Notes: a model not told the origin generated them from the letters alone. A stretch of 60,569 bases of DNA from Fidelibacterota bacterium (GCA_046861385.1 JBHHTW010000011.1:1-60569), one strand, 5' to 3'. Counted from the first letter of the stretch, positions 25,274-52,166 are shown. Numbers and translations: made by a program.

Positions 25274-26640
25274 TGTTTTACGAGCCATTTTTCAGGGTCT
25301 AGTTTTTGATCTTTCCCCCAAATTTCAAAATGTAATTTCGCTCCATTAATGGATCCTGATTCTCCCATATAGGCGATGATATCGCCTGCTTGTACTTGAC
25401 TATCCACATTTGTTTGAATATGGGTAATATGGCTGTAAATCGTGAAAAAACTCCCGCCATGATCAATAATAATAATATTACCATAACCACGAATAAATGT
25501 AATCGTTGTCACGATTCCTCCCATGATCGTTGATATGGGAGAACCGGGCTGTCCTTTTATGTCAATCCCTGTATTATTCGTAGTGGTTTTTAATTCGGGG
25601 TTCCATTTTCGTCCAAACTTGCTTATCACCCGGCCCTCAGCTGGCCAGGGCAACTGCCCTTTTAACGATTTAAATGACTTGGATTTAAGCGCTTCCTTTT
25701 GTCTTCGTATTCGCTCTTCACGATCTCTTCGCAATTTATCCTTTTTAATTTTTTCCATTAATTTTTCAAGTTCAATTACACCCTGTTTTTTTTCTTTTAA
25801 ATATTGAGCCAGTTCTTTTTTATTATGGTGAATTCTCTCTAATTCTCTTTTCTTTTTGATTCTTTTTGATCGTATTTCTTTTATTTGTTTTTCACGTTCA
25901 TTTTTTAAATGAGTGCTTCTACGTAAGGAGGCTTCATGGTCCAGTTTACTTTTGCCTATCTTAATGAGTAAATTATGGATTCTAATTTTATTTTTCCGAT
26001 CAATGTCAGCGATAATTTTTTGATATTTTGCTCTATAAACAGCCTGTCGCCAAGAGGTTGAGCTCAACACTTTTTCAAGGTCAGACAAAGTTCCTTTTTT
26101 GTATAAATGTTTAACACGTGCTGCGTAGCGGAATTTTAACTCTTCCAGCATTTTTTCATTAGAGCTGATCTCCTTTTCCAGAAGAAATATTTGGGCTTTT
26201 GTTTCTTTTTCTTCCTTTTTAATTTGGTTTATCAACCGCTCAACCAAAGAAATTTCCTTTTCAAGATTCAGAATGATTTTTGCAGTCGATTTTTCTTTAT
26301 ATGTTTCTGATTGCAGCTTTTTCTGCGTTGCAGCGATCTCATTTTTCAAGTCTCTAACCGCTTTAGACTGATAATTTATTTCTCGATCAAAATCCCTGTC
26401 ATTGATCTGTGACACGATGGAATTTGAAAAAAGAATTATGATTAAGAAACCTTTGCAAAACCTTGTGTATGAAGAAAAAAGAATTAAAATTTGTTTGATT
26501 CCTGCCCGCTCCTGCCTTGTATGGGTAGGCGGGAAGGCGGGAAATGCATTTAATGGCATCACCATTGATAAGTTTTTCAACGATAAGCAGGCAAATTTTA
26601 ATCTTTTGAATTTGTGCAGCAGATTTTGCATGGGTCTCAT
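25270..26640 (-). CDS. EnvC-like murein hydrolase activator (coiled coil plus degenerate M23/LytM); the first ~65 codons derive from a MITE
   Basis: Long coiled coil, LPWPAEG, NTGIDI (HxxxD lost), GYGNIIIIDHG and KLHFE (HxH lost). Confidence 0.85.
   Translation of the reverse strand: MRPMQNLLHKFKRLKFACLSLKNLSMVMPLNAFPAFPPTHTRQERAGIKQILILFSSYTRFCKGFLIIILFSNSIVSQINDRDFDREINYQSKAVRDLKNEIAATQKKLQSETYKEKSTAKIILNLEKEISLVERLINQIKKEEKETKAQIFLLEKEISSNEKMLEELKFRYAARVKHLYKKGTLSDLEKVLSSTSWRQAVYRAKYQKIIADIDRKNKIRIHNLLIKIGKSKLDHEASLRRSTHLKNEREKQIKEIRSKRIKKKRELERIHHNKKELAQYLKEKKQGVIELEKLMEKIKKDKLRRDREERIRRQKEALKSKSFKSLKGQLPWPAEGRVISKFGRKWNPELKTTTNNTGIDIKGQPGSPISTIMGGIVTTITFIRGYGNIIIIDHGGSFFTIYSHITHIQTNVDSQVQAGDIIAYMGESGSINGAKLHFEIWGKDQKLDPEKWLVKQ
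26446..26638 (-). mobile_element. MITE-like 160-bp palindromic element, copy 1 (193 bp including a nested 33-bp insert), within the 5' end of the envC-like ORF
   Basis: Terminal IRs GAGACCCATGCAAAATCT / GAAACCTTTGCAAAACCT. It aligns without gaps to 52007-52166 once 26501-26533 is removed. Confidence 0.85.
26501..26533. repeat. 33-bp GC-rich mini-palindrome nested in the MITE at a TT^AA site
   Basis: CCTGCCCGCTCCTGCCTTGTATGGGTAGGCGGG is absent from copy 2, which reads GCCTT|AATC at this position. Confidence 0.8.
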
Positions 26641-26908
26641 TTATCTTATTCGGATATACATAGATGCAAAAGCTACCGAGGTGGTCAATTTCAATACAAA
26701 GGATTTTATGTCAAGAATCAGAATAATCAAACTGGATCAAATATAATATTAATATTTTATTTAATGGAGATACCACTATTGCCATGAAGAAATATTGAAA
26801 ACCCAGCCACTCTTATCATTTCACAACTCAACCAGAAGAAATAGAATGGTTCTTGACTGATCATCCGTAAGGTGACTATTTTCCCCTTTCAACCCACAGG
26901 AGAGAATA

Positions 26909-27403
26909 TTGAAAAGTCCACTTTGGTCCAATTTATTTACTCACTGGAATTCAGAAGAAAGTGAAAAAGTTCAGGTATTAAGAGAAGTGCCAGTGTTCAC
27001 CGGTCTCAGTAAAAAAGAGATAAATGAAATCGAAAAGCTCACTCATGAAAGAACATATCAAGCAGGCGAGAGTATATTCAAACAGCTCGCCCCCGCAGAA
27101 GGAATGTTTATTATAATCTCGGGAGCAGTAGAAATTTATTTTGAAAATAAAGGAATAAAAAATATTTTAGCAGAATTAGGGGATCATGAATTTTTTGGTG
27201 AAATTGCATTATTAGATGATAAACCTCGTACTGCGAGCGCTGTTGCTCAAAAACCATCCGTATTATTAGGATTTTTTAAACCTGATTTATTATCACTTAT
27301 GGATCGAAATCCGGTTTTGAGCAATAAAATTTTAACTAATCTGGGCACCGTTCTTTCGGAGCGTCTCCGCAAAACAAACGAATTATTAGCTGAAAAAAGT
27401 TGA
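26909..27403 (+). CDS. Stand-alone cyclic-nucleotide-binding domain protein
   Basis: GMFIIISGAV, FFGEIALL..KPRTASA and ERLRKTN. TTG start preceded by AGGAG. Confidence 0.88.
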   Translation: MKSPLWSNLFTHWNSEESEKVQVLREVPVFTGLSKKEINEIEKLTHERTYQAGESIFKQLAPAEGMFIIISGAVEIYFENKGIKNILAELGDHEFFGEIALLDDKPRTASAVAQKPSVLLGFFKPDLLSLMDRNPVLSNKILTNLGTVLSERLRKTNELLAEKS

Positions 27404-28521
27404 TCTCTCAGGAAAAAAACTACCTTCAGCTTATCTATCGCTTACTGGTTGGCATACTGGCTGTCACCTTTTTAGTTATTATCTGGCCATATATTTCATC
27501 TGTGGTAACTATGCTTATTTTTGCATTTTTATTTACGACCGTTTTATTACCCAGTGTTGATGTATTAGAGCGCAAGATTGGAAGCCGGGGGATTAGTGTG
27601 CTTATTATTACTGTTGGGCTTATCGCCGCAATTATTGTCTTTATCAGTAGTTTTGCATCCAATATAGCAGATCAAGCAGGTGAATTTTCTCAAAGGATAC
27701 AAACAGAATCATTCACAGAAGATTTCAATTCATTTATTGAAAACGCTAAATCAAAAATGCCTGATTTCATTACGGAACTTCAGACAGAAGAAATGGATTC
27801 AGCGTCGAGGCTAAATCAGATGATCAGTAAAGTTGTATCAAAATTATTAACGTTCGCCGGTGCCTTGGGAAGCTTTGTATTTACGCTGATAATGGTCCTA
27901 ATATTTATGATTATTCTTTTACAGAATTACCATCAATTCAAAAAATCATTGGTTGGATTTATTCCCAATAAATATTTCGAAATCGGGTTACGTCTGATTT
28001 ACAATATTGAACAGCAAGTTTCCAATTATTTAAGAGGTCAGCTTATGGCGGCAACAAGTGTTGCGATTATGTCAATTATCGGACTCTATATTCTGAATTT
28101 CTTTGGCGCTAATTTAACACTCGTTATTTTTATTGGTATCATCGCCGGGCTGGCTAATTTGATTCCGCTTGTGGGACCTTTTATTGGCATGCTTATTGCT
28201 TTTTCCATGGCAATTATGAATAACCTGGGAATTGAAGCGGCGCAATCCCATTTACTTTTTAATACGATTCCCTCTCCCTTTTACTTACTGGATATTGTTG
28301 TAATGTTTATCATTGTCCAACAGATTGACAATAATATCATTACACCCATGATGGTTGGTGAAAGTGTTGGGCTGCACCCGATGATGGTCATGATTGCATT
28401 ACTCATCGGCGGTACTCTAATAGGCCCAATGGGAATGCTGTTTGCGGTTCCTGCAGCCGGAATTATAAAAGTAATCGGTCATGAGGTTTCTTTTTTATCC
28501 AAAAATACACATTTACTTTAA
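27400..28521 (+). CDS. AI-2E family (PerM/UPF0118) transporter
   Basis: YLRGQ, NLIPLVGP, QQIDNNIITP...GLHP and GMLFAVP. Its start overlaps the cNMP gene stop. Confidence 0.92.
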   Translation: MISQEKNYLQLIYRLLVGILAVTFLVIIWPYISSVVTMLIFAFLFTTVLLPSVDVLERKIGSRGISVLIITVGLIAAIIVFISSFASNIADQAGEFSQRIQTESFTEDFNSFIENAKSKMPDFITELQTEEMDSASRLNQMISKVVSKLLTFAGALGSFVFTLIMVLIFMIILLQNYHQFKKSLVGFIPNKYFEIGLRLIYNIEQQVSNYLRGQLMAATSVAIMSIIGLYILNFFGANLTLVIFIGIIAGLANLIPLVGPFIGMLIAFSMAIMNNLGIEAAQSHLLFNTIPSPFYLLDIVVMFIIVQQIDNNIITPMMVGESVGLHPMMVMIALLIGGTLIGPMGMLFAVPAAGIIKVIGHEVSFLSKNTHLL

Positions 28522-30419
28522 CCCGTTCGTTCGACCTTAAACAAAATATAATCCTTAAAAGATAAGTGCAATTCACCTCCTCCTTCTAACGGATAAATCC
28601 ATAATTGAATGGAGGATCTGGTGTTATCGATCTTTTTGATAATATCATCAGGTGAACCAAGAAGTGATTGAATATCCGGTACTGTCATACCCACAGAAAT
28701 GGGCGGATTTGACTTGGTGTCAATAGAACGAATCCGAACATCCTCCATTCTGGCGTCAATCCGATTATACATTTCCCGCTCTTGATCCACTTCAAATTTT
28801 TCCATTAAAACAGCTAATACTTTTTCATTTTTTTCACCAAGCCCACCGGTCATTTCACTTGCATCTTTCAACAATTGAATCGCCGATCTCAATTCACTAT
28901 GGGACGTGATCGTATTGGCGAGTTTGACCAAATGGGTCGCCACTTGATAACGCAAAGTATTTACTTCAAATTCCACCGATTTATCTTTTGCTATTGCTTG
29001 ATTTAATAACTCTAATGATTTCCTGAAAAATCCATACTTCAGGGCTTTTTCTGATTCTTGTATGAATTTTTTTGCTTCAAAATAGGGTATTTTATTTTTT
29101 GCTTCTTGTGAGAAATGAGCGATATTTTCCATCAATCGAATTGCCTCAACATTTTTCCCAATTGAGGACAATTTTTCTGCTTTTTCAATTTCAAGTATTG
29201 CCAGATGATTCAGTTTCTCATTAATCATGATTTTTGTTTCTTTATTGGCTCTTTTTCTGGCTTCAAGAAATCTGTCAATTCCTTTTTTCATCATTCCCTT
29301 GTTCTCAAATTCAACACCTTCCTTGTAAAGTTGAATCGGAATTTGTTCCCTGCATTCAGCGATATACTTCTCTGCTCGGACTCGATTGGAATGATTCGGA
29401 TAATTTTCTAAAAATGTTTTAAAATGCTTATTAGCGGTAATATAATCCCCGCGATAAAAATAGTCCTTTGCCTTATCACCTGATGTGAGTGATCCGCCGT
29501 ACAACACAGAAAAAGTCAGATGAATTCCGAAGTCCTGTAGTCGGATTTTCTTTATGGGCGTCACGTTGTCCGGATCGTTTATTGTATTTAACTTGGTGTA
29601 TGCATATCGAAGATCGAGGCCCACAGAAAAACGATTTTGAATTTTCTGACCCGACCCGCTTCCACCGAGAAAATTCCCAATATTGATAATAAATCTGGGG
29701 CCTGCTGAAACGGACATGGTGGGTCCGAATCCCGTTGGTGTCGTCATTAATTGATCTTTATTATCCATATAAAATTTGGCTGTTGAAATACCATAAGTAA
29801 ATCGTGTATCAATATACCATAATTCAAACCACTGAAACATGGTGGTATGGCTGATCCCAAACGTCAATATCCTCGGAGCAAATCGAATATTCCCAATATC
29901 CCAGCTTGGATTAATGCTCCCCCATGACGATATTTTATCAATTTTCCCAGGTATGAGTAAGTTGCTGTATCGAAAATTCAATCCTGTCTGCATATCCAGC
30001 CAACTCGCATTAAGAAAATAATAGAACAAATTGGTTTTGATAAAATCAATATCTAATTGATGACCCAATCTTGCGGTAAATGATCCACCGGTAAAATTGG
30101 ATACAGATTCATCATATTTTATCCAATCAGATTTTATATTCTTGCCTTCAGTTCCACCGCCTCCTAAAAAAAATGCTCCATAGCGAATTTCTACCGGAGC
30201 AAACGTCAGAGGCGCATGAAATTCACGCCGGTGCAATGCCTGGTCTACCCAATAACCTGTCTCATGCTTGATACCTTGACTTGGCTTAAATTGAATCAGT
30301 CCCCAAAGATAGGATTTGACTTCATCTGGCGGAGAACCAAATAGGGTCCCAAGAAACAATAATGGGAATATGTATGTATTTAACCTCGGATGCATACCTA
30401 TGCAAAATACTGAATGCAT
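28518..30419 (-). CDS. Hypothetical exported protein: beta-rich N-terminal half, TPR-like middle, SmpA/BamE-like C-terminus (start may be 30395)
   Basis: Hydrophobic N-terminus, alternating beta-strand patterns (FSVGLDLRYAY, FGIHLTFSVLY), FKTFLENYPN helix pair, and GMT...LLGSPD...WIY at the end. Confidence 0.65.
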   Translation of the reverse strand: MHSVFCIGMHPRLNTYIFPLLFLGTLFGSPPDEVKSYLWGLIQFKPSQGIKHETGYWVDQALHRREFHAPLTFAPVEIRYGAFFLGGGGTEGKNIKSDWIKYDESVSNFTGGSFTARLGHQLDIDFIKTNLFYYFLNASWLDMQTGLNFRYSNLLIPGKIDKISSWGSINPSWDIGNIRFAPRILTFGISHTTMFQWFELWYIDTRFTYGISTAKFYMDNKDQLMTTPTGFGPTMSVSAGPRFIINIGNFLGGSGSGQKIQNRFSVGLDLRYAYTKLNTINDPDNVTPIKKIRLQDFGIHLTFSVLYGGSLTSGDKAKDYFYRGDYITANKHFKTFLENYPNHSNRVRAEKYIAECREQIPIQLYKEGVEFENKGMMKKGIDRFLEARKRANKETKIMINEKLNHLAILEIEKAEKLSSIGKNVEAIRLMENIAHFSQEAKNKIPYFEAKKFIQESEKALKYGFFRKSLELLNQAIAKDKSVEFEVNTLRYQVATHLVKLANTITSHSELRSAIQLLKDASEMTGGLGEKNEKVLAVLMEKFEVDQEREMYNRIDARMEDVRIRSIDTKSNPPISVGMTVPDIQSLLGSPDDIIKKIDNTRSSIQLWIYPLEGGGELHLSFKDYILFKVERTG

Positions 30420-30737
30420 AGATTTTGAGCAAGTATCTTGTTGCGGGTGGTTTATCTGTTCTATGTGACTGCTGAATTATAAAAACAGGTCAATGATAAC
30501 CCTCTGTGAACATTCAATCCTTGATCAGAAGTGAATTTCATGCTTACAGATATCGGAATCGTACTTGGATTTTCAACAGAGAATAAAAATTAGTAAAATG
30601 TATTTTTCCCTACCTATAATTAAATCAAAATAAATTTAATAAGATTCCCATCAAGTTCAGTAGTAGAAAAAAGGAATGTGTAAATTTACCATTCGAATTA
30701 CGGAACTATTTTAAGGACAGAATATTCCAAAACTAAA

Positions 30738-31385
30738 ATGAAGATAAAAAGTTTATACCTATTATTATTCTTATTCGCTTTTGTTTTTGGACAGGAGTTC
30801 ACCATTGCTCGCCTTCATTATAGCGGCGGGGGTGACTGGTACAGCGATCCCAGCAGCATTCCTAACCTGCTTAATTATATGCAGACACACACAGCCATAA
30901 AATCCACTGACAAAGAAGCGAGAGTGAAATTAACCGACGAAGATTTATACTCATTCCCCTATTTATATATGACCGGCCACGGCAATGTACGATTTGATGA
31001 AAAGGAAATAATCCGTTTGAGGACATTTCTTAAACGCGGGGGATTTTTACACGCTGATGATAATTATGGTATGGATCAATCGTTCAGAAGAGAGATGAAA
31101 CGGGTGTTTCCAAATAAAGAATTTGTGGAATTACCATTTGATCATCCTGTATTTCACCAGGTATACGACTTTCCGAAAGGTCTGCCTAAAGTTCATGAGC
31201 ATGACAACAAACCGCCACAGGCTCTGGCATTATTTGAAGGGAGTCGAATGATAGTCCTATATACTTATGAATGTGATTTAGGAGATGGATGGGAAGATAA
31301 TGAGGTTCATAATGACCCTGAATTTATTCGAGATGCAGCTTTGCAAATGGGTGTTAATATTATTCACTTTGCATTAACACAATAA
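30738..31385 (+). CDS. DUF4159 domain protein, secreted
   Basis: IARLHYSGGGDWY, PYLYMTGHG, GGFLHADD, LPKVHEHD and DLGDGWE. Confidence 0.88.
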   Translation: MKIKSLYLLLFLFAFVFGQEFTIARLHYSGGGDWYSDPSSIPNLLNYMQTHTAIKSTDKEARVKLTDEDLYSFPYLYMTGHGNVRFDEKEIIRLRTFLKRGGFLHADDNYGMDQSFRREMKRVFPNKEFVELPFDHPVFHQVYDFPKGLPKVHEHDNKPPQALALFEGSRMIVLYTYECDLGDGWEDNEVHNDPEFIRDAALQMGVNIIHFALTQ

Positions 31386-31419
31386 TGTTGTCAAAGAATG
31401 GGTAAAAGATCATAATTAA

Positions 31420-34400
31420 ATGAACTCCATTGAAAAACAGTTAAACAGACTTTTAAGGATATTCCTTCTGAGAGACGCACAAACGACGGCATGGATTATT
31501 TATTCCTTATTACTGACTATAATATTTATAGCAATAAGTGTAGAAAGTATATTTTATTTTTCACCTACTATCCGCTTTGGTGCTTTGAAATTAGGTTTTA
31601 TTTTGTTTAGCATATTTATTTTTTCGTCCATTATATATCTCCTTCTTGCATTCAATAATCGAATAAACAGATACCGCAAATCAACTTTAGCCAGAGTTGC
31701 CGGGCAAATTGCTTTTCCTAAAGAGGATACAATTATTAATGCCCTTCAACTGGAACGAACATTGGCCTCCAGTACATCCCGGGAACTGAGTCAATCCTTT
31801 GTAGATGAAACATCTCAAAAACTTGAACGAATCAACGAATCTGATTTATTTACATCCAAAAGAGGCACAAGATGGAAAATCGTTTCTTTGGTTATTTTAA
31901 TCATAGGGTGTCTTGTCTTTTCATTAAACTGGCAAAACAATGCTTTGTCCGTCTATCGCTGGTTTCATCCAACAATTGAATTTTCAGTCCCAAAACCATT
32001 CATAATTCATTCTGAAACCGGGAATATTAATTTATTGGGAAGCGAATCGGCGAATTTGTTATTCTCAGTCACCGGAGATGCTCCTGACTCTCTATTTATC
32101 GAGCTTAAATCCTATACTAAACAAGACTCTACTAAACCCATCCCGGTGGCTAAAAAGAATAGTAATGGATTTTATCAATATCATTTAGAGGATATTTCAG
32201 AAAATTATATGTATCGTTCCTATGTAACATCTACATCATTTTGGGAGCCTTGGGGAGAAATATCCTCTGAAATGCATACTATCTCCGTAACGGACCGACC
32301 GGTAATGGAGGATTTAACAATCACAGTTACTTCTCCGGATTATGCAAAATTAGATCCGGTCGTCCAAAAAGGAAATCAAGCCAATATTAGTGGTTTATTG
32401 GGCTCAACCATCGAAATTAAACTTCGCAGTAATAGGCCTCTGAAAAAGGGGAATCTGTTATTAGATGATTCTGAAATTCCCATGAAAATCAACGGAAAAC
32501 GAGCTGTTGGAGAATTTACAATCGAACAGGATAGTCAATTATCCATCCAACTGCTTGATATTCGCGGAATTTCAAACCGAAATCCTATTCCTTTCCAGAT
32601 TTCAGTCATAAAAGATTTTTATCCTGATATTACGGTACTTAGGCCTGAAAGGTCTTTTGAGCTTGGAGGTGATCAATCGGTATTATTACACGTTCAAATC
32701 GAAGATGATTTTGGATTTTCCAACCTTCAGGTTGCTTATGAAATACATCGTCCAGTTTATATTAATATCGATCCGCTGATGTCTCTGTTCACTATTCCTA
32801 TTCAGGACCCTCAAAATATTAGTCAGGATATTATTTATTCCTGGCAATTAGGTGAATTCGGTTTAATGCCGGAAGATGAGGTGCATTTCCATTTTGAGTT
32901 GTCTGATAATGATGATGTATCCGGTCCCAAGAAAAAAGTGACCGAAGATTTCATTGCCCGAATACCCGGATTAGCAGAATTATTCACATCGTTCGAGAAT
33001 AAAGAAACAAATATTTTAAATGACGTCTTTGAAACTCAGGAAGAATTGGAATCTATTCGTGAAAATCTTGATCAATTAAATTTGGATATTTTAAAACAAG
33101 ATCAGCTGACTTGGGATCAGCACCAAGACCTGCAGAAAATGCTTGAAGGAATACAAGAAGAAATTCAGAAAACTAAAGACCTCAAAGAAACAATCGATGC
33201 TTTACAGGAAATCGGAGAAAAACACGGATTATTCTCATCTGACCTCATGGAAAAATTCAGTCGTTTACAGGAATTAGTGGATGAAATATTATCCAACGAC
33301 CTTATGGAAAATCTACTTGATTTAGAAAAGCTGATGTCAGAAATGGATACACAAAAACTCCAGGAATCACTGGAATCATTAACAGATAATATGAGCCAAA
33401 TCGAACAGCAATTGGATCGTTTTATCGATATTTTCGAACGGTTAAAAGCTGAGCAAAAAATGGATGAATTGCGTACCCGCATAGAAAGTTTGGCAGACCA
33501 ACAAGAACAAATTCACAACCGAATCGAACAGGTGCAAGAATCAGATGATTCATCTAATTTTCCAAGGTTAAGCGAAGAACAGCAGCGGCAGGTTGAGGAG
33601 TTTTCCAATATTCGGAACGAGATGGAGGAAACTGCGGAAGCTGTAGAAAAGTTTCATCAGAAATCTTCTGATTTGCTTCAAGAGTTAAAAAATAACCCAT
33701 TAATGAATCAAACTTATGCTGACCTCCAGCGGACTGTAAATCAATTGCGCCGACAAAATGCAGACACGGCCCTGAAACACAGCTCTCAATCGTTGGAGAA
33801 TCTTGAAAAATTGCTATCAGAAATGGAGAATATTCAAAAAGGTTTTCAATCTGCGACCACTCGGGAAATGGCAGAAAAATTTCAACAAACGATGAGAGAT
33901 GTGCTAAACTTATCCAAGTCCCAGGAACATTTGCAAACCGAAACAAATTCCCTGTCAAGAAACTCTCCCAGACTTGGTGGATTGGCAAACCAACAGCAAA
34001 TGAATCAGGATCAACTAAGACAAATAATGGAACAGTTGATGAATTTATCTCGAGAGACCTTCGCTGTTACACCTGAAATGGGGCAGGCAATCGGAATGGC
34101 TAACGCAATGATGGAAGAAGCAAAAAATGCTTTGGCTCAACAAAATGGAAGCGGTGCCGCGCAGTTTCAAAATGATGCTATGTCATCATTGAACGAAGCT
34201 GCTTTAGCGATTCATCAATCAATGAAAGCCATGAGATCTTCCGGTTCCGCAGGCGGTTATGAGCAATTTCTGGAACAAATGCAGAAAATGGCCGGACAGC
34301 AGCAGGGAATTAATAACCAAAGTATGCAATTGGCTTTGGGACAAATGGCAGCGGCGGCTCAAGAAGGATTATTGCAGAGATTGCTCCAAGAACAAAGACA

Positions 34401-34833
34401 AGTCAGAAAATCTCTTCAGGAATTAATGAGTGAATCAAAACAAACCGGCGGAAAAGGTTTGGGTGATATGGGTGGTATAGCAAAAGAAATGGATGATGTC
34501 CTGAAAGACTTACAGCGCCGAAAAGTAACCCCTAAAACGATTGAGCGTCAGCAGCGTATTTTATCCCGGATGCTCGACAGTCAAAAATCCATGACCCAAA
34601 GAGGTGAAAAAGAGAAACGAAAAAGTGAAACAGGGACTGAAATTATTACAGCAGGACCCGGCGGTCTTCCTACAGATATGGGGCAAAGAAGAAGTTTAGC
34701 GTTGGATGCGCTGGATCGTGCTTTAAAATCCGGCTATCCACGGGATTATCAAATAATGATCCGCCGGTATTTTAATTCCATCAGTGAGAATGAAGCGTTT
34801 CTTTTAAAAGGAGATTCCACAATTGCGAATTAA
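31420..34833 (+). CDS. DUF4175-like membrane-anchored protein (3 TM, Ig-like domains, long Q/E-rich coiled coil)
   Basis: N-terminal TMs, DDFGFS...LMPEDEV...DND..SGPK, coiled coil, and C-terminal RQQRILSRML...YP..Y...IRRYF. Confidence 0.75.
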   Translation: MNSIEKQLNRLLRIFLLRDAQTTAWIIYSLLLTIIFIAISVESIFYFSPTIRFGALKLGFILFSIFIFSSIIYLLLAFNNRINRYRKSTLARVAGQIAFPKEDTIINALQLERTLASSTSRELSQSFVDETSQKLERINESDLFTSKRGTRWKIVSLVILIIGCLVFSLNWQNNALSVYRWFHPTIEFSVPKPFIIHSETGNINLLGSESANLLFSVTGDAPDSLFIELKSYTKQDSTKPIPVAKKNSNGFYQYHLEDISENYMYRSYVTSTSFWEPWGEISSEMHTISVTDRPVMEDLTITVTSPDYAKLDPVVQKGNQANISGLLGSTIEIKLRSNRPLKKGNLLLDDSEIPMKINGKRAVGEFTIEQDSQLSIQLLDIRGISNRNPIPFQISVIKDFYPDITVLRPERSFELGGDQSVLLHVQIEDDFGFSNLQVAYEIHRPVYINIDPLMSLFTIPIQDPQNISQDIIYSWQLGEFGLMPEDEVHFHFELSDNDDVSGPKKKVTEDFIARIPGLAELFTSFENKETNILNDVFETQEELESIRENLDQLNLDILKQDQLTWDQHQDLQKMLEGIQEEIQKTKDLKETIDALQEIGEKHGLFSSDLMEKFSRLQELVDEILSNDLMENLLDLEKLMSEMDTQKLQESLESLTDNMSQIEQQLDRFIDIFERLKAEQKMDELRTRIESLADQQEQIHNRIEQVQESDDSSNFPRLSEEQQRQVEEFSNIRNEMEETAEAVEKFHQKSSDLLQELKNNPLMNQTYADLQRTVNQLRRQNADTALKHSSQSLENLEKLLSEMENIQKGFQSATTREMAEKFQQTMRDVLNLSKSQEHLQTETNSLSRNSPRLGGLANQQQMNQDQLRQIMEQLMNLSRETFAVTPEMGQAIGMANAMMEEAKNALAQQNGSGAAQFQNDAMSSLNEAALAIHQSMKAMRSSGSAGGYEQFLEQMQKMAGQQQGINNQSMQLALGQMAAAAQEGLLQRLLQEQRQVRKSLQELMSESKQTGGKGLGDMGGIAKEMDDVLKDLQRRKVTPKTIERQQRILSRMLDSQKSMTQRGEKEKRKSETGTEIITAGPGGLPTDMGQRRSLALDALDRALKSGYPRDYQIMIRRYFNSISENEAFLLKGDSTIAN

Positions 34834-40845: not shown

Positions 40846-40849
40846 ATAT

Positions 40850-41629: not shown

Positions 41630-42062
41630 GAATTAAATCCTGCCAGTTGCATTGGTGTAGGTATTTTTCTTCCTTCCGTGTCATGATATCTTTCTCAGCT
41701 TCTGTTTGATCATTATAATTCAGCAAATGCAGTCCACCATGAATGATCAATCGCCCGACCTCCCTCGCAAGCGGTTCGTCAAATGTTTTGGCGTTTTCCT
41801 TTGCCCGGGGTATACTGATGTAAATCTCTCCTTCAACTTCGTTTCTTTCATAGTCATTTAAACGGAAGGCGACCACGTCCGTCAATTGATCTAAATGGAA
41901 AAATTCAATTTTTAATTTTTTTAATAGATTATCATTCCCAAAAATGATAGATATATTATCAACTGAAAAACCCTCCTGCTCAATGACATGAGTCAGAATG
42001 CTACCAGCTATTGGAGCAATTACTCCAGAGATATTTGGATCAATTTCAATTGAAACGGCCAT
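41619..42062 (-). CDS. ybeY: rRNA maturation endonuclease YbeY
   Basis: TDVVAF, GEIYIS and IIHGGLHLLNYND (the third His of HxxxHxxxxxH is replaced by Q after ND). Confidence 0.9.
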   Translation of the reverse strand: MAVSIEIDPNISGVIAPIAGSILTHVIEQEGFSVDNISIIFGNDNLLKKLKIEFFHLDQLTDVVAFRLNDYERNEVEGEIYISIPRAKENAKTFDEPLAREVGRLIIHGGLHLLNYNDQTEAEKDIMTRKEEKYLHQCNWQDLIHER

Positions 42063-44398: not shown

Positions 44399-45555
44399 GC
44401 TGCTTTTCGAAAAGTGTTCATTAATTGGCGTGCAATAATCATCCGTTGGATTTCACTGGTTCCCTCACCGATTTCCAGCACTTTTGCATCCCGGAAAAAT
44501 CGTTCCACATCATATTCTTTTACATATCCATAACCACCTAAAACCTGTATGGCTTCGGTCGTAATCTTCATGGCTGCTTCACTGGCGAAGAGTTTTGCCA
44601 TCGCCGCTTCTTTCGTAATATCCATCCCCTGGTCTTTCATCCAGGCAACGTGGAACGTCAGCAATTTTGCTGCTTCAATTTGTGTGGCCATATCTGCTAA
44701 TTTAAATCCAATGGCCTGAAATTTGTAGATTTCGGAACCGAACGCTTTTCTTTCAGCGGCGTAATTTAACGCTTTTTGATACGCTCCCTCTCCCGTACCT
44801 ACTGAAAGTGCCGCTATTGATATTCTTCCACCCGATAGTGTTTTTAAAAATGTTTTGAATCCATCCATTGGCTGACCGAGCATGTTTTCCCTTGGGACGC
44901 GCATATTTTCGAAAAATAATTGACGGGTGTCACTGGCGCACCAACCCATTTTTTTCTCTTTTGAACCTATGACTAATCCTGGAGTGTTTGTGTCGACAAT
45001 GAGTGCTCCGATCCCCATATCTTCTCCATTTTCAACAATCCGGGTTGTTAATGAAAGAATACCTGCTCTCCCGGAATTCGTGATGAATATTTTGCTGCCA
45101 TTTACAACGTATTCATTCCCATCCAAAACAGCAGTCGTTTTGGTTCCTCCAGCATCACTCCCGGCCTCCGGCTCAGTTAGGCCAAAAGCACCTAAAACTT
45201 TTCCACTGGCAAGTTGTGGAACATATTTTTGTTTTTGTTCTTCCGTACCGGCAAGGACAATAGGCATCGTTCCTAATGACGTATGTGCTGCCATGGTAAT
45301 GGCAACAGATGCGTCTACTTTTGCCATTTCCATTACAGCGGCGGCGTAGGCAATCGTATCCATCCCTGCTCCTCCATATTTTTCCGGGATTGGAATTCCC
45401 ATTAGACCCAATTCACCCATTTTAGCTACGATCTCCTCAGGAAATCTTCCTGTTTCATCCAATTCACGGGCAATGGGTTCTACTTCTGTTTTGGCAAAAT
45501 CCCTTACCATTTTCACTAACATGTTATGCTCATTTGAAAAAAATAATTTATCCAT
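44395..45555 (-). CDS. Acyl-CoA dehydrogenase
   Basis: AFGLTEPEAGSDA, NGSKIFITN, KKMG, GRI, R..FG, AMAKL, GGYGY and EIGEGTSEIQR. Confidence 0.95.
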   Translation of the reverse strand: MDKLFFSNEHNMLVKMVRDFAKTEVEPIARELDETGRFPEEIVAKMGELGLMGIPIPEKYGGAGMDTIAYAAAVMEMAKVDASVAITMAAHTSLGTMPIVLAGTEEQKQKYVPQLASGKVLGAFGLTEPEAGSDAGGTKTTAVLDGNEYVVNGSKIFITNSGRAGILSLTTRIVENGEDMGIGALIVDTNTPGLVIGSKEKKMGWCASDTRQLFFENMRVPRENMLGQPMDGFKTFLKTLSGGRISIAALSVGTGEGAYQKALNYAAERKAFGSEIYKFQAIGFKLADMATQIEAAKLLTFHVAWMKDQGMDITKEAAMAKLFASEAAMKITTEAIQVLGGYGYVKEYDVERFFRDAKVLEIGEGTSEIQRMIIARQLMNTFRKAA

Positions 45556-45558
45556 GAC

Positions 45559-46560
45559 TTAACACCATTTTATTGCTGCGGATGCCCATGTAAATCCCGA
45601 CCCGAACGCTGCCAAGACAATATGATCATTCGCTGTGAATTTTCCTTCTTTAAATGCCTCACACATGGCGATGGGTATCGTTGCAGCTGTTGTATTCCCA
45701 TAACGATGAATGTTACTATAAATTCGATCCACATCCACATTAAGTCGTTTTGCAACAGCCTTTGTAATGCGATTATTGGCTTGATGGGGAATCACTTGAG
45801 CGATATCATCCATGGTTAAACCATTCGCTAAAAGCGCTTCGTTTATTACTTCCGGAAAACGGTTGACTGCATGTTTAAATACTTCACGACCATTCATTTG
45901 CAGACGATGTCTTTTTGCTTTTATTCTCTCCTCATCAAATCCCCTTCCATCAATTCTGAACGAAGGCAATTCAACCCAAAGATCCTTCAGATATTTTCCT
46001 TCTGAATGGAGATGTGTAGATAAAATGCCAGTCCCCTCTTCGCAAGGTTGCAGGATAACAGCGCCGGCACCATCGCCAAATAACACACCCACATCTCTAC
46101 CTTCAGGATTTTTCTCCAATGCGGGAGACAGCACATCCACTCCGACCAAAAGGACCGTATTACATTGTCCATTTTTAATAAACTGATCAGCGATAGACAT
46201 GCCATAAAGGAATGCGGAACACCCCACACGGATATCAAAAGCTCCGATGGTTCGTAATGACATCATATCTTGAAGTTGAGCTCCAATTCCTGGAAAATAA
46301 TAATCTGATGAAGCAGTTCCAACGATTACCATATCAATATCTTCAGGTGATATCTCCGCCATTTCTAAGGCTTTTTCACAGGCCTTTAACGATAAATCCG
46401 ATCCGGCTTCACCCTCAGAAATCCATCGCCGTTCCTCGATCCCGCTCCGTGAACGAATCCATTCATCGCTTGTATTCATCATATCCTCAAGTTCCATATT
46501 TGTGATAACTCTGTCTGGAACTTGGAATCCCATTCCTGTTATTTTTGAATTTCTCATCAT
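45559..46560 (-). CDS. fabH: Beta-ketoacyl-ACP synthase III
   Basis: TSDEWI, GCSAF (Cys), LFGDGAGA, HQANNRI (His), YGNT (Asn) and FGSGFTW. Confidence 0.93.
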   Translation of the reverse strand: MMRNSKITGMGFQVPDRVITNMELEDMMNTSDEWIRSRSGIEERRWISEGEAGSDLSLKACEKALEMAEISPEDIDMVIVGTASSDYYFPGIGAQLQDMMSLRTIGAFDIRVGCSAFLYGMSIADQFIKNGQCNTVLLVGVDVLSPALEKNPEGRDVGVLFGDGAGAVILQPCEEGTGILSTHLHSEGKYLKDLWVELPSFRIDGRGFDEERIKAKRHRLQMNGREVFKHAVNRFPEVINEALLANGLTMDDIAQVIPHQANNRITKAVAKRLNVDVDRIYSNIHRYGNTTAATIPIAMCEAFKEGKFTANDHIVLAAFGSGFTWASAAIKWC

Positions 46561-48257
46561 TATTTCGCCGGTCTAATATCTCTCACGTTTAGTTGAATTG
46601 AAGTATTCCCCTGCCATTCATTCGTTTCAATGACAAAGGCAATATCGACCGGTTTTCCTGTTATTAGCATTTCATATTTATTTGATAGGCCAAACCCGAT
46701 TGCCTGGTACGAACGCATGCCTTGTCTTACTTTGAACCTCAAATGTTCACCGGTTTTACCGACCACTTTAGGATTACCTACAATTTCTGCAGCAGAAATA
46801 GCAAATTTAGGTCTCATATTTCCCGGGCCATACGGCCCTAATTTATCTAAAAATTCCATAAACCTTGGTGTAATATCTTTCAATACCATAAAACTATCCA
46901 ATGTTAATGTTGCATCCATATCATCTTGGGATAAGGAGTCATTGGCATAGTGGATAAATGCTTTTTTAAAATCCTGTAAATTATCCGATGATATGGTTAA
47001 CCCTGCTGCCATTGGATGGCCTCCATATCCTTCCAAATGAACTTTACATTCTGTCAGTGCTTCATATAGATCAAACCCTTTAATACTTCTGGCAGAGCCT
47101 TTTCCCAACCCATTTTCCATTGCAATAATAATGGTTGGTCTGTGAAATTCCTCTTTTATTTTGGAGGCAACAATCCCAACAACACCCGCGTGCCAACCTT
47201 TAGAAGCAAGAACCAGTGCATAATCATTCTTTAAATCCGCTTCCGCATTTACTTTCAATAACGCCTCATCAAGAACTGATTGCTGAATGAATTGTCTTCG
47301 TTTATTTTCTTCATCTAATTCTTTTGCCAACTGCTTGGCCCGTTTCTCATCATTTGTTACAAATAATTCCAGAGCTCTATTTGCATCACCCAACCTACCG
47401 GCGGCGTTGATTCTGGGTGCAATACTGAAAACCAATTGTCCAACAGATATGTGGTCATTTAGCCCAGCAAGATCAAGCAGTGTTTTCAATCCCGGTTTTT
47501 CCAAATCATGAAGCAAAGACAAACCGTGGTAAACAATAATTCTATTTTCTTCTTTAATCGGAACTATATCTGCTGCAGTTCCCAATGTGATCAAGGGAAG
47601 AATTTCTGCATAATTGGAGACAGGAATATTGAGTTTACTGGCGATAGCAGTGATCAGTTTAAATGCAACACCTCCACCACAAAGTCCCTTAAAGGGATAT
47701 GGACAATCGCTGCGTTTGGGATTCAGAATCGCATACGCATTGGGGAGATTTTTCTCGGGTATATGGTGGTCTGTAATAATGACATCTATGGGTTTTTCAT
47801 TCGCATAATTAACTTTTTCAAACGCATTGATACCGCAATCGCACGTAATTAAAAGATCTGCATTTATTTTCTGGGCATAGTCAATACCTTTAGTAGATAG
47901 TCCATATCCTTCTTTTTCCCGATTCGGTATATAGTAGTCAACAACTCCACCAAATAGTCCCAACGCATTGCAAAGTGCCGCCGCGCCAGTCGTCCCGTCA
48001 ACGTCGTAATCACCAAATATTAATATGGGGTTTCCGTGATGAATATTTATCAAAATTCGGTCAACTGCTTTATCCATGTCCATCATCAGAAATGGATCGA
48101 AAAGGTTTTTCCAATCCGGGTTAAAAAATAAATCCGCTTCTAATTTTGTTTGAATTTTTCTATTGGCCAAAACTTTGGCAATAACCTCAGATGTCCGGAA
48201 GGACTTTTGTATTGAAGCCACAAGTTGACTGTCTGGATTTAGAATGGACCAGCGCAT
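46560..48257 (-). CDS. recJ: ssDNA exonuclease RecJ
   Basis: GDYDVDG, TCDCG, TDHH, PRINAAGR, GSARS, GGHPMAAG and LGPYGPGN. Confidence 0.96.
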   Translation of the reverse strand: MRWSILNPDSQLVASIQKSFRTSEVIAKVLANRKIQTKLEADLFFNPDWKNLFDPFLMMDMDKAVDRILINIHHGNPILIFGDYDVDGTTGAAALCNALGLFGGVVDYYIPNREKEGYGLSTKGIDYAQKINADLLITCDCGINAFEKVNYANEKPIDVIITDHHIPEKNLPNAYAILNPKRSDCPYPFKGLCGGGVAFKLITAIASKLNIPVSNYAEILPLITLGTAADIVPIKEENRIIVYHGLSLLHDLEKPGLKTLLDLAGLNDHISVGQLVFSIAPRINAAGRLGDANRALELFVTNDEKRAKQLAKELDEENKRRQFIQQSVLDEALLKVNAEADLKNDYALVLASKGWHAGVVGIVASKIKEEFHRPTIIIAMENGLGKGSARSIKGFDLYEALTECKVHLEGYGGHPMAAGLTISSDNLQDFKKAFIHYANDSLSQDDMDATLTLDSFMVLKDITPRFMEFLDKLGPYGPGNMRPKFAISAAEIVGNPKVVGKTGEHLRFKVRQGMRSYQAIGFGLSNKYEMLITGKPVDIAFVIETNEWQGNTSIQLNVRDIRPAK

Positions 48258-48510
48258 TTAAATAAAACCAAAGACCGGAAAAACGAAGGAATCATATAGT
48301 GTGTCATCATTCACAACAGATTGAAGGATTGTGTATCTATGCATACTTCTGCGTAAAAGCTTTGGAAGAGATAATTGAATCATATTATAGAATTCCTTAT
48401 TAAAAAGATAACGAATATTTGAATGAATAAAGTATGGTGTCATTCCGAATGGGTTAGCAAAAAAAATGAAATTCTGATGAAGTCCTAATCGTTTATTATG
48501 GAATTAATTT

Positions 48511-48919
48511 TCTGAGCCGGTCTATAAGCCGAGTTCTGTTCTTCCCGACAAAAAGTGTCAGGAATTAGTGGTCATTCCTCTGGACCCAACATCACTGCCG
48601 GGTTCAAGCAACCTACCCTCTCCTAATAACGATGCGAACCACATCTCAGAGACTATTCGGTCTTGCACTGGATGGGGTTTACCCAGCTTCCCAATTTTCA
48701 TTGGGAACTGGTGGTCTCTTACACCACCGTTTCACCTTTATCCCAACATTAATGTCGGGAAAGTCTACTCTCTGCTGCACTTTCCATATCCCGACATCTA
48801 AGATATCGGAACTCCTCCCGTTAGGAGGCATCCTGTTCTGCAGTGCCCGGACTTTCCTCCCCGATTCGTTCGTTGCACATTGGCAAAACAAATCAGAGTA
48901 ACCACTCAACCGACTCAGA
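48511..48919 (-). ncRNA. rnpB: RNase P RNA (type A)
   Basis: The minus strand has GAGGAAAGTCCGGGC, GGAAAGTGCAGCAGAGAG, GGTGAAACGGTGGTGTAAGAGACCACCAG, GGTAAACCCC, GCAAGACC and AACAGAACTCGGCTTA. The ends TCTGAGTCGGT / ACCGGCTCAGA pair as P1. Confidence 0.97.
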
Positions 48920-49129
48920 TTGTTAAATAACTGCCGAATTTAAAGAATTTAATTTTACGAAAAAAATCAATCTGAAATACGTTAACAGCGTTTTCACTTT
49001 TCATATTTACAGCAATTAACCTTAATTGGAGAAATAATACAAATCTGATTAATTAATGCTGTTTTTTAAAGATTGATAAACGACTCCAAAAATCATTTTT
49101 GAAACAATATACTATATTTTATCGATCGG

Positions 49130-49840
49130 TCAAGCTGTTTTGGATGGCCAGTATAAAAAACGATTACAAACATCACATGAGCTTATACTGTCTCCTTTTT
49201 TTACTTCTGCCAATTTTTGCGGAGGCACCATTGATCCACACCCACTACATGAAGAGGATAAAACTTCCACAACCCCAAGTCCCCCTCTAGCAGAAAATAC
49301 ACGGTTATATTTTGACACTATCGTATCTGAAAGATCCGAGATAACCAATTCTCTATCTTTTTTTAATTGTTCCTTCTTTTCTGATGATTCAGCAATCAAT
49401 GATTCCAAATTGGATCTTCTTTCATGCAAATTTGATGTTAAGGAACCCAGGTTATTTTCCTGTTTCTCAGTTTTTTCCAGCAACTGATCTTTTTCCATTG
49501 TTAGCTCTAATTCATTCGTCTCAATGCTATCCAACTCCTCTTTTAAGAAATCAATTTCTTGTGACAGAGCATCGTATTGTTTATTTGTTTTAACTAAGAA
49601 TAATTGATCTTTTAGTTTTTGGATTTTCTCTTGGATCACTTTTGCATTGTGATCCTTTTTGGATATGTTTAATTCGATTTCTTTTATGCGTGTTTTTGCG
49701 TGATCAATTTCTTCGACAGCTGATTTTTCATTCTGACTTAATTCATCTACTTTGAGAGGAAGATCTCCCAGTAATTCCCGAATTTCCTGTAGTTGACCAT
49801 CAATCTCCTGCAATTGGATCAATGATGCGATTGAGTTCAT
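49130..49840 (-). CDS. C4 zinc-ribbon / coiled-coil protein (DUF164, CT398/HP0958-like); start 49840
   Basis: LIQLQEID, coiled coil, KTNKQYDAL..EI and CSGC...CDVCNRFLY. CAGGAG lies upstream of the ATG at 49840. Confidence 0.9.
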   Translation of the reverse strand: MNSIASLIQLQEIDGQLQEIRELLGDLPLKVDELSQNEKSAVEEIDHAKTRIKEIELNISKKDHNAKVIQEKIQKLKDQLFLVKTNKQYDALSQEIDFLKEELDSIETNELELTMEKDQLLEKTEKQENNLGSLTSNLHERRSNLESLIAESSEKKEQLKKDRELVISDLSDTIVSKYNRVFSARGGLGVVEVLSSSCSGCGSMVPPQKLAEVKKGDSISSCDVCNRFLYWPSKTA

Positions 49841-49861
49841 AGCGTGGCTCCTGTTCACTAA

Positions 49862-49890
49862 ACAAAAAATGCACCTGCAAAGGTGCATTT
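49862..49890 (-). terminator. Intrinsic terminator-like hairpin between sat-cysC and the zinc-ribbon gene
   Basis: The minus strand reads AAATGCACCT-TTGC-AGGTGCATTT-TTTGTT. Confidence 0.75.
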
Positions 49891-50006
49891 AATATTTGAT
49901 TTTGGAAAAATAAACCGGGGTGTTCGCATTTTGTTCAATTCAGAACGCCCCTTTCTCTAGTAATTATCTTATTCATAAAGCTTGGTAATTTAAACATTAC
50001 TTTGAA

Positions 50007-51713
50007 TTATAGATAACCCAATTCTTTGATTTTTCGCAATATCTCATTTACTAATTCTTCCGGTGAGGCATTAGCAGAAGTGATGGTAATTTCAGGGGCC
50101 TCCGGTTCTTCATAGGGGTCATCAATCCCGGTAAACTGTTTTAATTTACCGGCTCTCGCTAATGCATAAAGGCCTTTGGCATCTCTTTCCTCGCATATCG
50201 ACAAAGAGGTATCGACATGTATCTCAATAAAGCCACCTAGAGGCGTAATAAGTTCACGGTTGAAGCGGCGGTCAGATTTATATGGTGCAATGGGTGCACA
50301 AATCGCAATCCCTCCATTTTTTGTAATCTCGCTGGCTACAAAACCAATTCGACGGACGTTTAGCTTACGATGTTCCTGAGAAAAACCAAGTTCGCTGGAT
50401 AAGTGAGTTCGGACAATATCACCATCAAGCAATGTTACCGGTCGCCGGCCGTCCTCCATCAGTTTGACCAGTAATCCATTTGCCAACGTGGATTTTCCTG
50501 ATCCGGAAAGACCCGTAAAGAATATAGTAAAGCCTCGTTTATCCAACGCGGGTCGAAACCGACGCAGTTCAGCCACAACGTTCGAATATGAAAACCATTC
50601 TGGTATTTCTTCATCGTTACGCAGTCGATTCCTGAGGTCTGTTCCGGAAATCATCTTGAATTCCTCATTATCTTTCAATTCATCTTTTGGGACATAAGCA
50701 TCTTTAGATGGAACATAAACCATGAGTTGAAATGGAACCATCTTAATCCCAAGTTCATCCTCATGTTCTTTAAGTAAATCTTGAGCGTCATAGGGGCCAT
50801 AAAATGGTTTACCGTCTTTTCCGTTTCCCGGGCTGGCATGATCTCTACCAACGATGAACATATTACACCCATAATTTTTACGAATGATGGCATGCCATAA
50901 AGCTTCCCTGGGTCCACCCATCCGCATCGCCAGAGGCAGTAAAGACAACATTGCTGTATTTTCCCGATACTTTTCTAAGACGTACTGGTAACATCTTACA
51001 CGGGTATAATGATCCACATCCCCCGGTTTTGTTAAGCCGACTACAGGATGAATAAGTACATTGGCATTATGTTCTTGAGCGGCACGAACAGTTAATTCTA
51101 CATGAGCACGGTGCATGGGATTTCGGGTTTGAAAAGCGACGACGTTATCCCATCCTCTTTCCAAAAATAAGTCTCGCACTTCCTGGGGCGTTTGACGTAA
51201 ATCGGTATAATCATATTGTTTTGGCAGCATCAGACCTACCAAAGGCCCTCCCAGATAAATCGGGTTGGATTCGTTCAGTAGATAATTGACCGCCGGATGT
51301 GTTTCATCGTCTGTTCCTAATACTTTTTCAGATTCGGCAATTTTATCCGGTGTCCACTTTGATTCAATTGTCATGATTGCAATTGCAAATCCTTCTTTAT
51401 CCCGTAAAGCAATTTGATCCGACAATTTTATCATTTCTGAAAAATTTTCAGAAACATCCAAGGTTACAGGAATGGGCCAAATAGTTCCATCTGCAAGACG
51501 CATATTATCCAAAACAGACTGATAATCACTCTCAGTTAAAAATCCTTTCAAGGGAGAAAATCCACCGTTTAAGATCATTTCTATATCACAAATTTGACGA
51601 TCGTTTAGAGTCCAGGATGGAAGTGATTTTGCTTTTTGTTTTAGAATTTCTAATTGATCGGCAGCTGATAATAGATTTTGTAGTTTGCCGCCGTGAGGTT
51701 CAATAAATGCCAT
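50007..51713 (-). CDS. Bifunctional sulfate adenylyltransferase / adenylylsulfate kinase (Sat-CysC); start probably MAFIEPHGG at 51713
   Basis: PHGGKL, NGGFSPL, FQTRNPMHRAH, IVGRDHA and ISGT, then the kinase P-loop GLSGSGKST, LDGD and FTGIDDPYE. Confidence 0.95.
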   Translation of the reverse strand: MAFIEPHGGKLQNLLSAADQLEILKQKAKSLPSWTLNDRQICDIEMILNGGFSPLKGFLTESDYQSVLDNMRLADGTIWPIPVTLDVSENFSEMIKLSDQIALRDKEGFAIAIMTIESKWTPDKIAESEKVLGTDDETHPAVNYLLNESNPIYLGGPLVGLMLPKQYDYTDLRQTPQEVRDLFLERGWDNVVAFQTRNPMHRAHVELTVRAAQEHNANVLIHPVVGLTKPGDVDHYTRVRCYQYVLEKYRENTAMLSLLPLAMRMGGPREALWHAIIRKNYGCNMFIVGRDHASPGNGKDGKPFYGPYDAQDLLKEHEDELGIKMVPFQLMVYVPSKDAYVPKDELKDNEEFKMISGTDLRNRLRNDEEIPEWFSYSNVVAELRRFRPALDKRGFTIFFTGLSGSGKSTLANGLLVKLMEDGRRPVTLLDGDIVRTHLSSELGFSQEHRKLNVRRIGFVASEITKNGGIAICAPIAPYKSDRRFNRELITPLGGFIEIHVDTSLSICEERDAKGLYALARAGKLKQFTGIDDPYEEPEAPEITITSANASPEELVNEILRKIKELGYL

Positions 51714-52006
51714 GTGTTTCCAATGTTTTAGTGTTAAAAAGGTGCGGAAGTTATGAAATTTCTTTTTAATCCGACATTTATTTTCGGTGTATTTTTGCCT
51801 ATCAGACAACTATATTCAATAAATAAAAGTATCTGTATAGGTCAAGCTGGAGAATGACCTTCATATAACAAAGTTGATAAAGTTCATTTTGGAATATGCA
51901 TAGTTAAATTCAGGAACAATATAATGATGTTAAAAGTTTAGTCATTTGTTAATCCGCAGATAATAACATCGGAAAAGCATTGCGATAGTTCAATAAATTA
52001 GTATTA

Positions 52007-52166
52007 GAGGGCTTTGCAAAACCTATTGCACAAATTAAAAAGTCTAAAATTCGTCTGCTTTTCGTTAGAAAACTTGTCCATAGCCCCGCTATTAACTATG
52101 TTTTCCGCCTTAATCAGACATATTTTACATCTTTTTCCTTTACACATCAGGTTTTGCAAAGCTCTC
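52007..52166 (+). mobile_element. MITE-like 160-bp palindromic element, copy 2, with TA flanks
   Basis: TA-GAGGGCTTTGCAAAACCT ... AGGTTTTGCAAAGCTCTC-TA (19/20 IR including TA). The imperfect IR extends ~55 bp, and there is a central ATAGC-CCC-GCTAT hairpin. Confidence 0.88.

Follow-up and report, generated by a model that had tools for sequence, protein, structure and literature searches.

Several families of miniature transposable elements with inverted repeats (MITEs) of bacteria are established carriers of open frames that are fused in frame to host genes, namely the Rickettsia palindromic elements (RPEs), ERIC, YPAL, RU-3, and the 107-bp Correia element, according to the sections on these elements in PMC2229807 and PMC10969869. 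The RPEs are described there as palindromic repeats of about 100 to 150 bp with long stem-loops and an open frame, which reside in frame inside conserved protein genes and also between genes (PMC2229807; PMC10969869, a review of 2024); their target duplication is tabled as uncertain (PMC2229807). ERIC, YPAL, RU-3, and the 107-bp Correia element are enterobacterial and neisserial MITEs of 100 to 170 bp with long hairpins and contiguous open frames that are fused to host frames. Most of these elements end in TA and carry terminal repeats that are short, and one YPAL fusion supplies part of a predicted signal peptide (PMC2229807, a review by Delihas). Here, a stretch of 60,569 nucleotides from a Fidelibacterota bacterium (GCA_046861385.1 JBHHTW010000011.1:1-60569; “the window” in the following, with positions counted from its first letter) was analyzed, which contains two copies of a palindromic repeat of 160 bp. 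These repeats are in all likelihood a non-autonomous DNA transposon of the Marinimicrobia that is tolerated in frame within signal peptides.

An earlier note on the window, made from the sequence alone, had located one copy on each strand at the positions given in Table 1, and these positions were recovered. When copy 2 and the reverse-complemented copy 1 were aligned globally, a single 33-bp insert was placed in copy 1, and the 160 ungapped columns contained 121 identities, exactly the number that had been counted by hand. Copy 1, which is 76% identical to copy 2, is old; its partner is an ordinary copy between genes. Both were stop-free in forward offset-1 and reverse offset-1, the both-strand openness that had been described before, and in addition in forward offset-0, which had been omitted. 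Copy 2 folded as one long hairpin on either strand, with −50.4 kcal/mol (z −8.9) for the plus and −61.3 kcal/mol (z −9.3) for the minus strand, and 0 of 200 shuffles folded as well in either case, in agreement with the long palindrome noted earlier. The minus-strand RNA of copy 2 was about 11 kcal/mol more stable than the plus-strand RNA because A-C mismatches become G-U pairs; this difference could be a hint of a preferred transcribed strand, or meaningless.

The two copies belong to a larger family. BLAST and nhmmer searches of the window's genome (2.43 Mb on 104 contigs) yielded eight places with near full cover of the model, two on contig C75 and one each on C64, C36, C72, C57, C80, and C2, plus fragments. 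When the window's genome and 40 relatives were surveyed, the element was matched in 12 of these 41 genomes, all five congeners among them, and occurred patchily in the family and order beyond the congeners. Three congeners gave 25 to 33 BLAST matches each, which are not copy numbers because both strands are listed, and congener copies were up to 94% identical to copy 2. Flanks were fetched for the best BLAST matches to copy 2, and the copies studied are these best matches. The fetched loci and the own genome contained 92 non-overlapping nhmmer matches, 78 of them end to end and 77 with enough flank to be analyzed. The repeats are thus a real multi-copy family of MITEs, small (160 bp), numerous (78 end-to-end copies), and without a transposase gene, and the mobile family postulated in the earlier note exists. 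All assemblies were fragmented metagenome-assembled genomes (MAGs), in which repeats are under-represented. Contigs of related assemblies started or ended inside the element, for instance, G003:C7:1-127, G040:C24:1-51, and G004:C150:7-60, which indicates that the element breaks assemblies and that copy numbers from MAGs are underestimates.

A pattern scan with one genome per species found 63 loci, 60 of which had a strong nhmmer match to the element. By record title, 49 of the 63 were Candidatus Marinimicrobia or Neomarinimicrobiota, 13 “uncultured bacterium”, and one Cellvibrionaceae. The latter (L147) showed no nhmmer match and was discarded as a chance pattern hit. Because of these record titles, the Marinimicrobia (SAR406) are most likely the host lineage of the element. 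Collections of plasmids and phages contained no match to it, and no Rfam family matched it, with the only match in the window at gathering score being an RNase P RNA located elsewhere. The open frames of about 53 codons gave no Pfam match when read as part of the host proteins.

Exactly 160 bp were found in 55 of the 77 copies. In the consensus, the outer 18 bases formed perfect inverted repeats and 45 of the 80 mirrored positions were complementary without gaps. The 5-mers flanking the element on both sides were identical in 41 of the 77 copies and differed by one mismatch in another 24, compared to 0 and 2 copies, respectively, in a control shifted by 5 nt. The target duplication is therefore 5 bp long, AT-rich (89% A+T), and of variable sequence. 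This result led to rejection of a TA-duplicating MITE of the IS630 or mariner type. The TA on both sides of copy 2, formerly taken as a 2-bp duplication, is part of the 5-bp duplication; the frame neutrality deduced from it was nevertheless correct, since a 5-bp duplication plus 160 bp adds 165 bp, or 55 codons, instead of the 162 bp assumed.

For an evaluation of the hairpin, 53 copies of 160 bp were aligned (alignment A3), using a structure derived from copy 2 as one member of the family. In total, 91% of the cells were paired, and the terminal repeats were paired in 46 to 53 of the 53 sequences at conserved positions. Eighteen pairs were changed on both sides, compared to 11.4 ± 1.6 in shuffles. 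Compensatory cells numbered 106; shuffles gave 33, and sliding the partners by 1 to 3 columns gave no more than 20, although such counts overstate the number of events because the copies are related and grouped in subfamilies. Paired changes were strongest at positions 3 to 5 of the terminal repeats (13 to 16 sequences each) and in the apical stem, and occurred also in the middle stem. The covariation of apical stem and terminal repeats that had been claimed from the two window copies is thus real and recurs across the family. In the window's genome (G000:C16:4572-4591), a perfect palindrome of 20 bp was equal to a head-to-head fusion of the element's outer ends and had a T run behind it; it may be either a hairpin resembling an intrinsic terminator or a copy that was deleted completely.

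Considering open reading frames (ORFs) of at least 100 codons, 22 of the 77 copies abutted the stop codon of an ORF and 29 the start side of one, with 9 doing both, and 35 abutted neither. In 11 of the 77 copies, a signal-peptide hydrophobic core or a lipobox followed right after the element with no start codon in between, and in all 11 the frame of the gene was open through the element. These cases were classified by reading the translations, not by a signal-peptide predictor, and the remaining 66 copies were read as non-genic. When the frame was closed through the element, a start codon was always present within about 20 codons after it, which places the copy upstream of the gene. The host genes were mutually unrelated. 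M23 peptidase was a host twice, once in the window's genome and once, with the element oriented the other way, in G001; the other hosts encoded an M1 aminopeptidase, an M43 peptidase, a solute-binding protein (SBP_bac_5), and several small lipoproteins. Forward offset-0 was used in four cases, forward offset-1 in two, reverse offset-1 in four, and reverse offset-2 in one, which belonged to a subfamily whose consensus is open in this frame, too.

Element-free orthologues confirmed 8 of these 11 genic insertions as filled and empty sites. In each confirmed case, joining the residues ahead of the insert to those behind it reproduced the uninterrupted signal peptide of the orthologue. Empty sites were present in four congeners for the M23 gene, in five orthologues for the M1 gene, in one for the M43 gene, and in five, three, and two for the genes at L078, L079, and L075, respectively. 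Two orthologues with intact frames were available for L040; a third match, in G001, contained an internal stop and was not counted. Two public protein predictions, obtained with the offset-0 peptide within the M1 peptidase as query, carried the peptide of the element in the same signal-peptide position. One has 624 residues and the source name aminopeptidase N, and the other, a PF09992 protein of 366 residues, adds another gene to the hosts. When the peptide read from copy 2 in offset-1 was searched among longer proteins, one match among 11 candidates resulted, which is uninformative.

No convincing mid-gene frame spanned the junction after in silico excision of the element from any of the 77 copies, so that insertions into the body of a protein numbered zero. 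Six loci with frames spanning the excised junction had been examined as candidates for such insertions. In the two best candidates, with long frames through the element, the frame ran antisense to real genes, at L054 to a thioredoxin gene and at L033 to tsaB/rimI-like genes, and at L065, L046, L037, and on contig C72 of G000 the frame stopped at the edge of the element, which makes them gene-end positions. The expectation of the earlier note that copies lie in frame in coding sequences was therefore correct for the signal-peptide part of exported proteins but not for the protein body, unlike the RPEs. At L035:623-1262 (minus strand), a copy was located about 28 codons into a Y1_Tnp (IS200/RAYT-like) gene; the frame is shut at the junction upstream, and the element may hold a restart. 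A repetitive extragenic palindrome (REP) moved by a RAYT (Y1) transposase was rejected, given the presence of a 5-bp duplication and the fact that the sole copy beside a Y1_Tnp-like gene interrupts this gene.

The M23 peptidase gene of the window illustrates the arrangement (Table 1). In its orthologues, about 7 residues precede the hydrophobic core. The native ATG of the window's gene occupies 26661-26659, and a new ATG at 26640-26638 combines two bases of the flank with the final base of the element. From this new start, the frame stays open over the whole 193 bp of copy 1, including the nested insert, so that the first 65 codons are encoded by the element and are directly followed by the native hydrophobic core and an intact remainder of 391 codons. 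Despite the age of copy 1 (76%), the gene is intact, with 90% identity to the nearest orthologue, which argues for a tolerated arrangement. The M23 gene of G001 contained a shortened copy of another subfamily in opposite orientation (L023:230-335), aligning to the same 5 target bases. This insertion was probably independent of copy 1, and this target site suggests an insertion hot spot.

Table 1. Positions of the MITE copies and other features in the window, and of nested inserts in further copies
Feature	Position	Strand	Remarks
MITE copy 2	52007..52166	+	160 bp, canonical length; hairpin fold; between two divergent genes
Left target duplication of copy 2	52002..52006		4 of 5 bases identical to 52167-52171
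Right target duplication of copy 2	52167..52171		5 bp, partner of 52002-52006
MITE copy 1	26446..26638	-	193 bp, 160 bp plus nested 33-bp insert; within 5' end of M23 peptidase frame
Nested insert in copy 1	26501..26533		33 bp, GC-rich, palindromic, multiple of 3; no stop in the three open frames
Gene-internal target duplication of copy 1	26441..26445		4 of 5 bases identical to 26639-26643; aligns with the same 5 bases of orthologous empty sites
Upstream target duplication of copy 1	26639..26643		Overlaps new start codon and stop of remnant frame
M23 peptidase gene as now read	25270..26640	-	456 codons; PF01551; orthologues without element
Remnant native start of M23 gene	26641..26661	-	ATG plus 5 codons, then stop abutting new ATG; by orthologues in G004, G005, G003, and G002
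Fused ATP-sulfurylase/APS-kinase gene, neighbor of copy 2	50007..51809	-	Start 198 nt from element
Polysaccharide export gene, neighbor of copy 2	52294..54627	+	Poly_export and SLBB domains; start 128 nt from element
Bacterial RNase P RNA (class A) gene	48509..48917	-	Full-length Rfam match, 267.6 bits
Small GC-rich palindromic inserts nested at few recurrent positions	Window 26501-26533; G000:C36:23823-24024; G000:C72:36895-37096; L047:2226-2427; L085; L011; L019; L017; L084

A candidate for the parent of the MITE was found among the DDE_Tnp_1 loci of five genomes, one of which, in G003, ended in the terminal repeat of the element. A fragment in G005 that was 88% identical to the copy of this insertion sequence (IS) in G003 likewise ended in the terminal repeat; both copies were truncated at the 5' side. 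A scan of metagenomes with the transposase of G003 yielded 42 loci, and in 15 of them the terminal repeat was present at both ends in inverted orientation, with a spacing of 1.22 to 1.31 kb in 14 loci and 1.02 kb in one. The enclosed transposase comprised 336 aa with DUF772 and DDE_Tnp_1 domains and scored 264.9 bits against NF033581 (cut-off, 140). The inner 120 bp of the MITE gave no nhmmer match to the IS fragments of G003 and G005 (L172, L173), and a fuzzy search for the terminal repeat in the window's genome returned no pair of ends with IS-like spacing. Solo ends in L012 and L091 adjoined ordinary genes and were dismissed as IS partners, as were rve-type transposase loci, at which no similar ends were present. 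This 1.24-kb IS5-family IS with matching terminal repeats is likely the parent and a plausible mobilizer of the MITE, in line with the earlier proposal of a non-autonomous element moved in trans. The IS5-family copy of G003 (L158:72-1067, minus strand) lacked its 5' part and had an IS110-like transposase gene (L158:1300-2091, plus strand) directly upstream; it may have been cut by another IS.

The observations can be combined into a sequence of events. The element would most likely move by a cut-and-paste process in trans, catalyzed by the DDE transposase of the IS5-family IS with the same ends. It would land in AT-rich 5-bp targets, which are duplicated and which are frequent in intergenic DNA as well as in the AT-rich opening codons of genes. 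Since each insertion contributes 55 codons precisely and no stop occurs in three of six frames, a gene whose signal peptide is hit between its charged start and its hydrophobic core would remain readable. The presequence, including the part translated from the element, would be cut off on export and the mature protein would remain unchanged, so that such insertions survive while those elsewhere in genes are purged.

Some of the results weigh against a MITE that is moved by this transposase and tolerated within signal peptides. The window's genome contained no full copy of the IS and its relatives only the two copies truncated at the 5' side. A perfect 5-bp duplication flanked 2 of the 15 IS copies and an imperfect one the others, albeit on metagenome contigs that are possibly chimeric at repeats. 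It is the shared ends that point to a mobilization in trans by the IS5-family transposase. A hairpin of −50 to −61 kcal/mol just past the start codon might hinder translation. The native start was severed by a stop in copy 1 of the window and in the second copy of L047, and a new start at or inside the element must be assumed in these cases. Orthologue searches for L076, the second copy of L047, and L005, 3 of the 11 genic cases, found none. Finally, the 53 aligned copies contained 25 distinct stop-making substitutions when 26.0 were expected from the substitution spectrum (permutation P 0.43).

The number of stop-making substitutions leads to the question of whether the open frames have a meaning at all. 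In an ordinary intergenic MITE, they could be an accident of base composition and palindromy, and the genic copies could be survivors of random insertion. The 25 substitutions are as many as an accident predicts, most copies are intergenic, and palindromy correlates the openness of forward and reverse offset-1, which weakens the coincidence. Against it, the consensus was open in three of six frames, and at least three open frames occurred in only 64 of 20,000 dinucleotide shuffles and 19 of 20,000 palindrome-preserving shuffles (0.1 to 0.3%); in the comparison with shuffled controls that the earlier note had proposed, the three frames were thus open beyond chance. They were stop-free in 45, 56, and 54 of the 77 copies, respectively, and the other three frames held about 3 to 7 stops. 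The three frames remained open in the consensi of two subfamilies that had diverged from the main consensus by 25 and 24 substitutions (P 0.06 and 0.05 with random placement), and one of them had opened a fourth frame, whereas a third subfamily consensus at a distance of 15 substitutions contained one stop in one of the three frames. Stop-making variants were somewhat rarer by occurrence (61 of 856) than among distinct variants (25 of 211). The length of the element plus 5 was divisible by 3 in 70 of the 77 copies, 55 of which had the same length, and all 14 nested GC-rich inserts in the 13 longer copies were multiples of 3 (27, 30, 33, 36, 42, or 54 bp), with two pieces of 20 and 25 bp in L092 adding up to 45. 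Some of these inserts surely go back to one event that was inherited or is viewed from the opposite arm, which leaves fewer independent events, perhaps 6 to 8. On balance, an accident of composition is the less probable reading, with roughly one chance in three. In G000:C102:407-876, a composite copy of about 470 bp was swollen by several different nested GC-rich repeats, and a GC-rich repeat akin to these was located upstream of the M23 gene in L023.

The hairpin allows other readings as well. The paired changes of the arms may stem from concerted evolution, by mismatch correction in an extruded hairpin or by templated repair during transposition, instead of selection for a functional fold, and we give this somewhat less than even chances. 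The changes were strongest at positions 3 to 5 of the terminal repeats, and the subfamily structure means that few events give many cells. Moreover, positions 3 to 6 often differed between the two ends of the parent-like IS, with full agreement in 4 of 15 copies as read by eye. The transposase thus seems able to do without matching bases there, and still the two ends of the MITE match at these positions in almost every copy. Paired changes in the apical and middle stems and the G-U-compatible asymmetry with the more stable minus strand, which is not predicted by a process purely at the DNA level, speak against it, but neither is decisive. The element could, alternatively, have been co-opted and kept by the host as a regulatory module, for instance, as terminator between convergent or tandem genes or, at the 5' end of genes of the secretome, as a processing site or a brake on translation. 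Its frequent position at gene borders, the stability of the hairpin on both strands, and the palindrome of fused ends with its T run would fit. AT-rich target preference by itself explains the position at gene borders, and presence or absence of the element differed between close genomes at every locus checked, which makes a regulatory module unlikely. A Tn3-derived miniature element (TIME) shares one property with the MITE, since TIMEs make 5-bp AT-rich duplications. The Tn3-family transposase (PF01526) was absent from all 41 genomes, with matches in control genomes, and the IS5-family IS with the same ends was found instead; this origin is very improbable.

We return to a mobile MITE tolerated within signal peptides as the preferred explanation and to the constraints acting on it. 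The individual, mostly intergenic copies, in our reading, decay neutrally, and a constraint on the open frames is suggested only at the level of the propagating lineages. The double constraint proposed in the earlier note, as a hairpin and as an open frame, is thus supported with respect to the hairpin, given the compensatory changes above the shuffled and slid controls, and not with respect to the open frame of individual copies. Among the observations that this note had named as speaking against its proposal, stops at the rate expected by chance were indeed seen, and a complete absence of in-frame copies from coding sequences was not. As a tentative and rather doubtful extension, the element may be adapted to coding sequence, with persisting lineages passing through copies in the cleavable signal peptides of useful genes, as a “presequence refuge”. 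Host selection would shield these copies from stops and frameshifts, and such copies would seed later bursts. If true, this would explain jointly the three open frames, the insertion of 55 codons, the nested inserts in multiples of 3, and the diverged subfamilies that stayed open despite neutral intergenic decay. A further consequence would be that, in an abundant phylum of the ocean, the export signals of the secretome, and possibly its expression, are reshaped time and again by a transposon.

Hardly any mobile elements have been described from the Marinimicrobia, an abundant group without cultured members. The literature searches gave, among the matches listed, no paper describing such an element in Marinimicrobia or SAR406, and the main text of a large census of MITEs does not mention the phylum, with supplements that may list elements from it (PMC11602168). 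The family is therefore possibly undescribed, as had been surmised. It provides a second, well-documented case, outside Rickettsia, of a palindromic element living within protein genes, with a simple reason for the tolerance: the insert lands in the protein part that is removed on export. At insertion sites, automated gene prediction will yield extended or misplaced starts for exported proteins, filled and empty sites serve as strain markers, and the pairing of the MITE with a candidate transposase makes its mobilization testable.

Compared to the known systems, the Marinimicrobia element resembles the RPEs in being small, palindromic, open-framed, and located in frame within genes. It differs from them by its phylum, its clear 5-bp duplication, the identified parent IS, and the location of the insertions: RPEs reside in the bodies of enzymes such as guanylate kinase, which was the case for none of the 77 copies here, and the in-frame cases were all in signal peptides. 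With ERIC, YPAL, RU-3, and the Correia element it shares the organization of a hairpin MITE with open frames, but its consensus has perfect terminal repeats of 18 bp, a 5-bp duplication, and three open frames, and it recurs, as verified by orthologues, at one site of existing signal peptides, past the charged start and ahead of the hydrophobic core. Its terminal repeats are in common with the 1.24-kb IS that passes NF033581; only the ends are clearly common, which is usual for a MITE and its parent, and the MITE has no transposase, unlike an IS of this family. A length of 5 bp is not known to be the commonest duplication length of the IS5 subgroups. The 5-bp AT-rich duplication is in common with the TIMEs, but the ends of the MITE match those of an IS5-family IS instead. 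The Marinimicrobia family works like the known open-framed MITEs RPE, ERIC, and YPAL, and is set apart from them by its phylum, its 5-bp duplication, its IS5-family partner, and its exclusive site within signal peptides.

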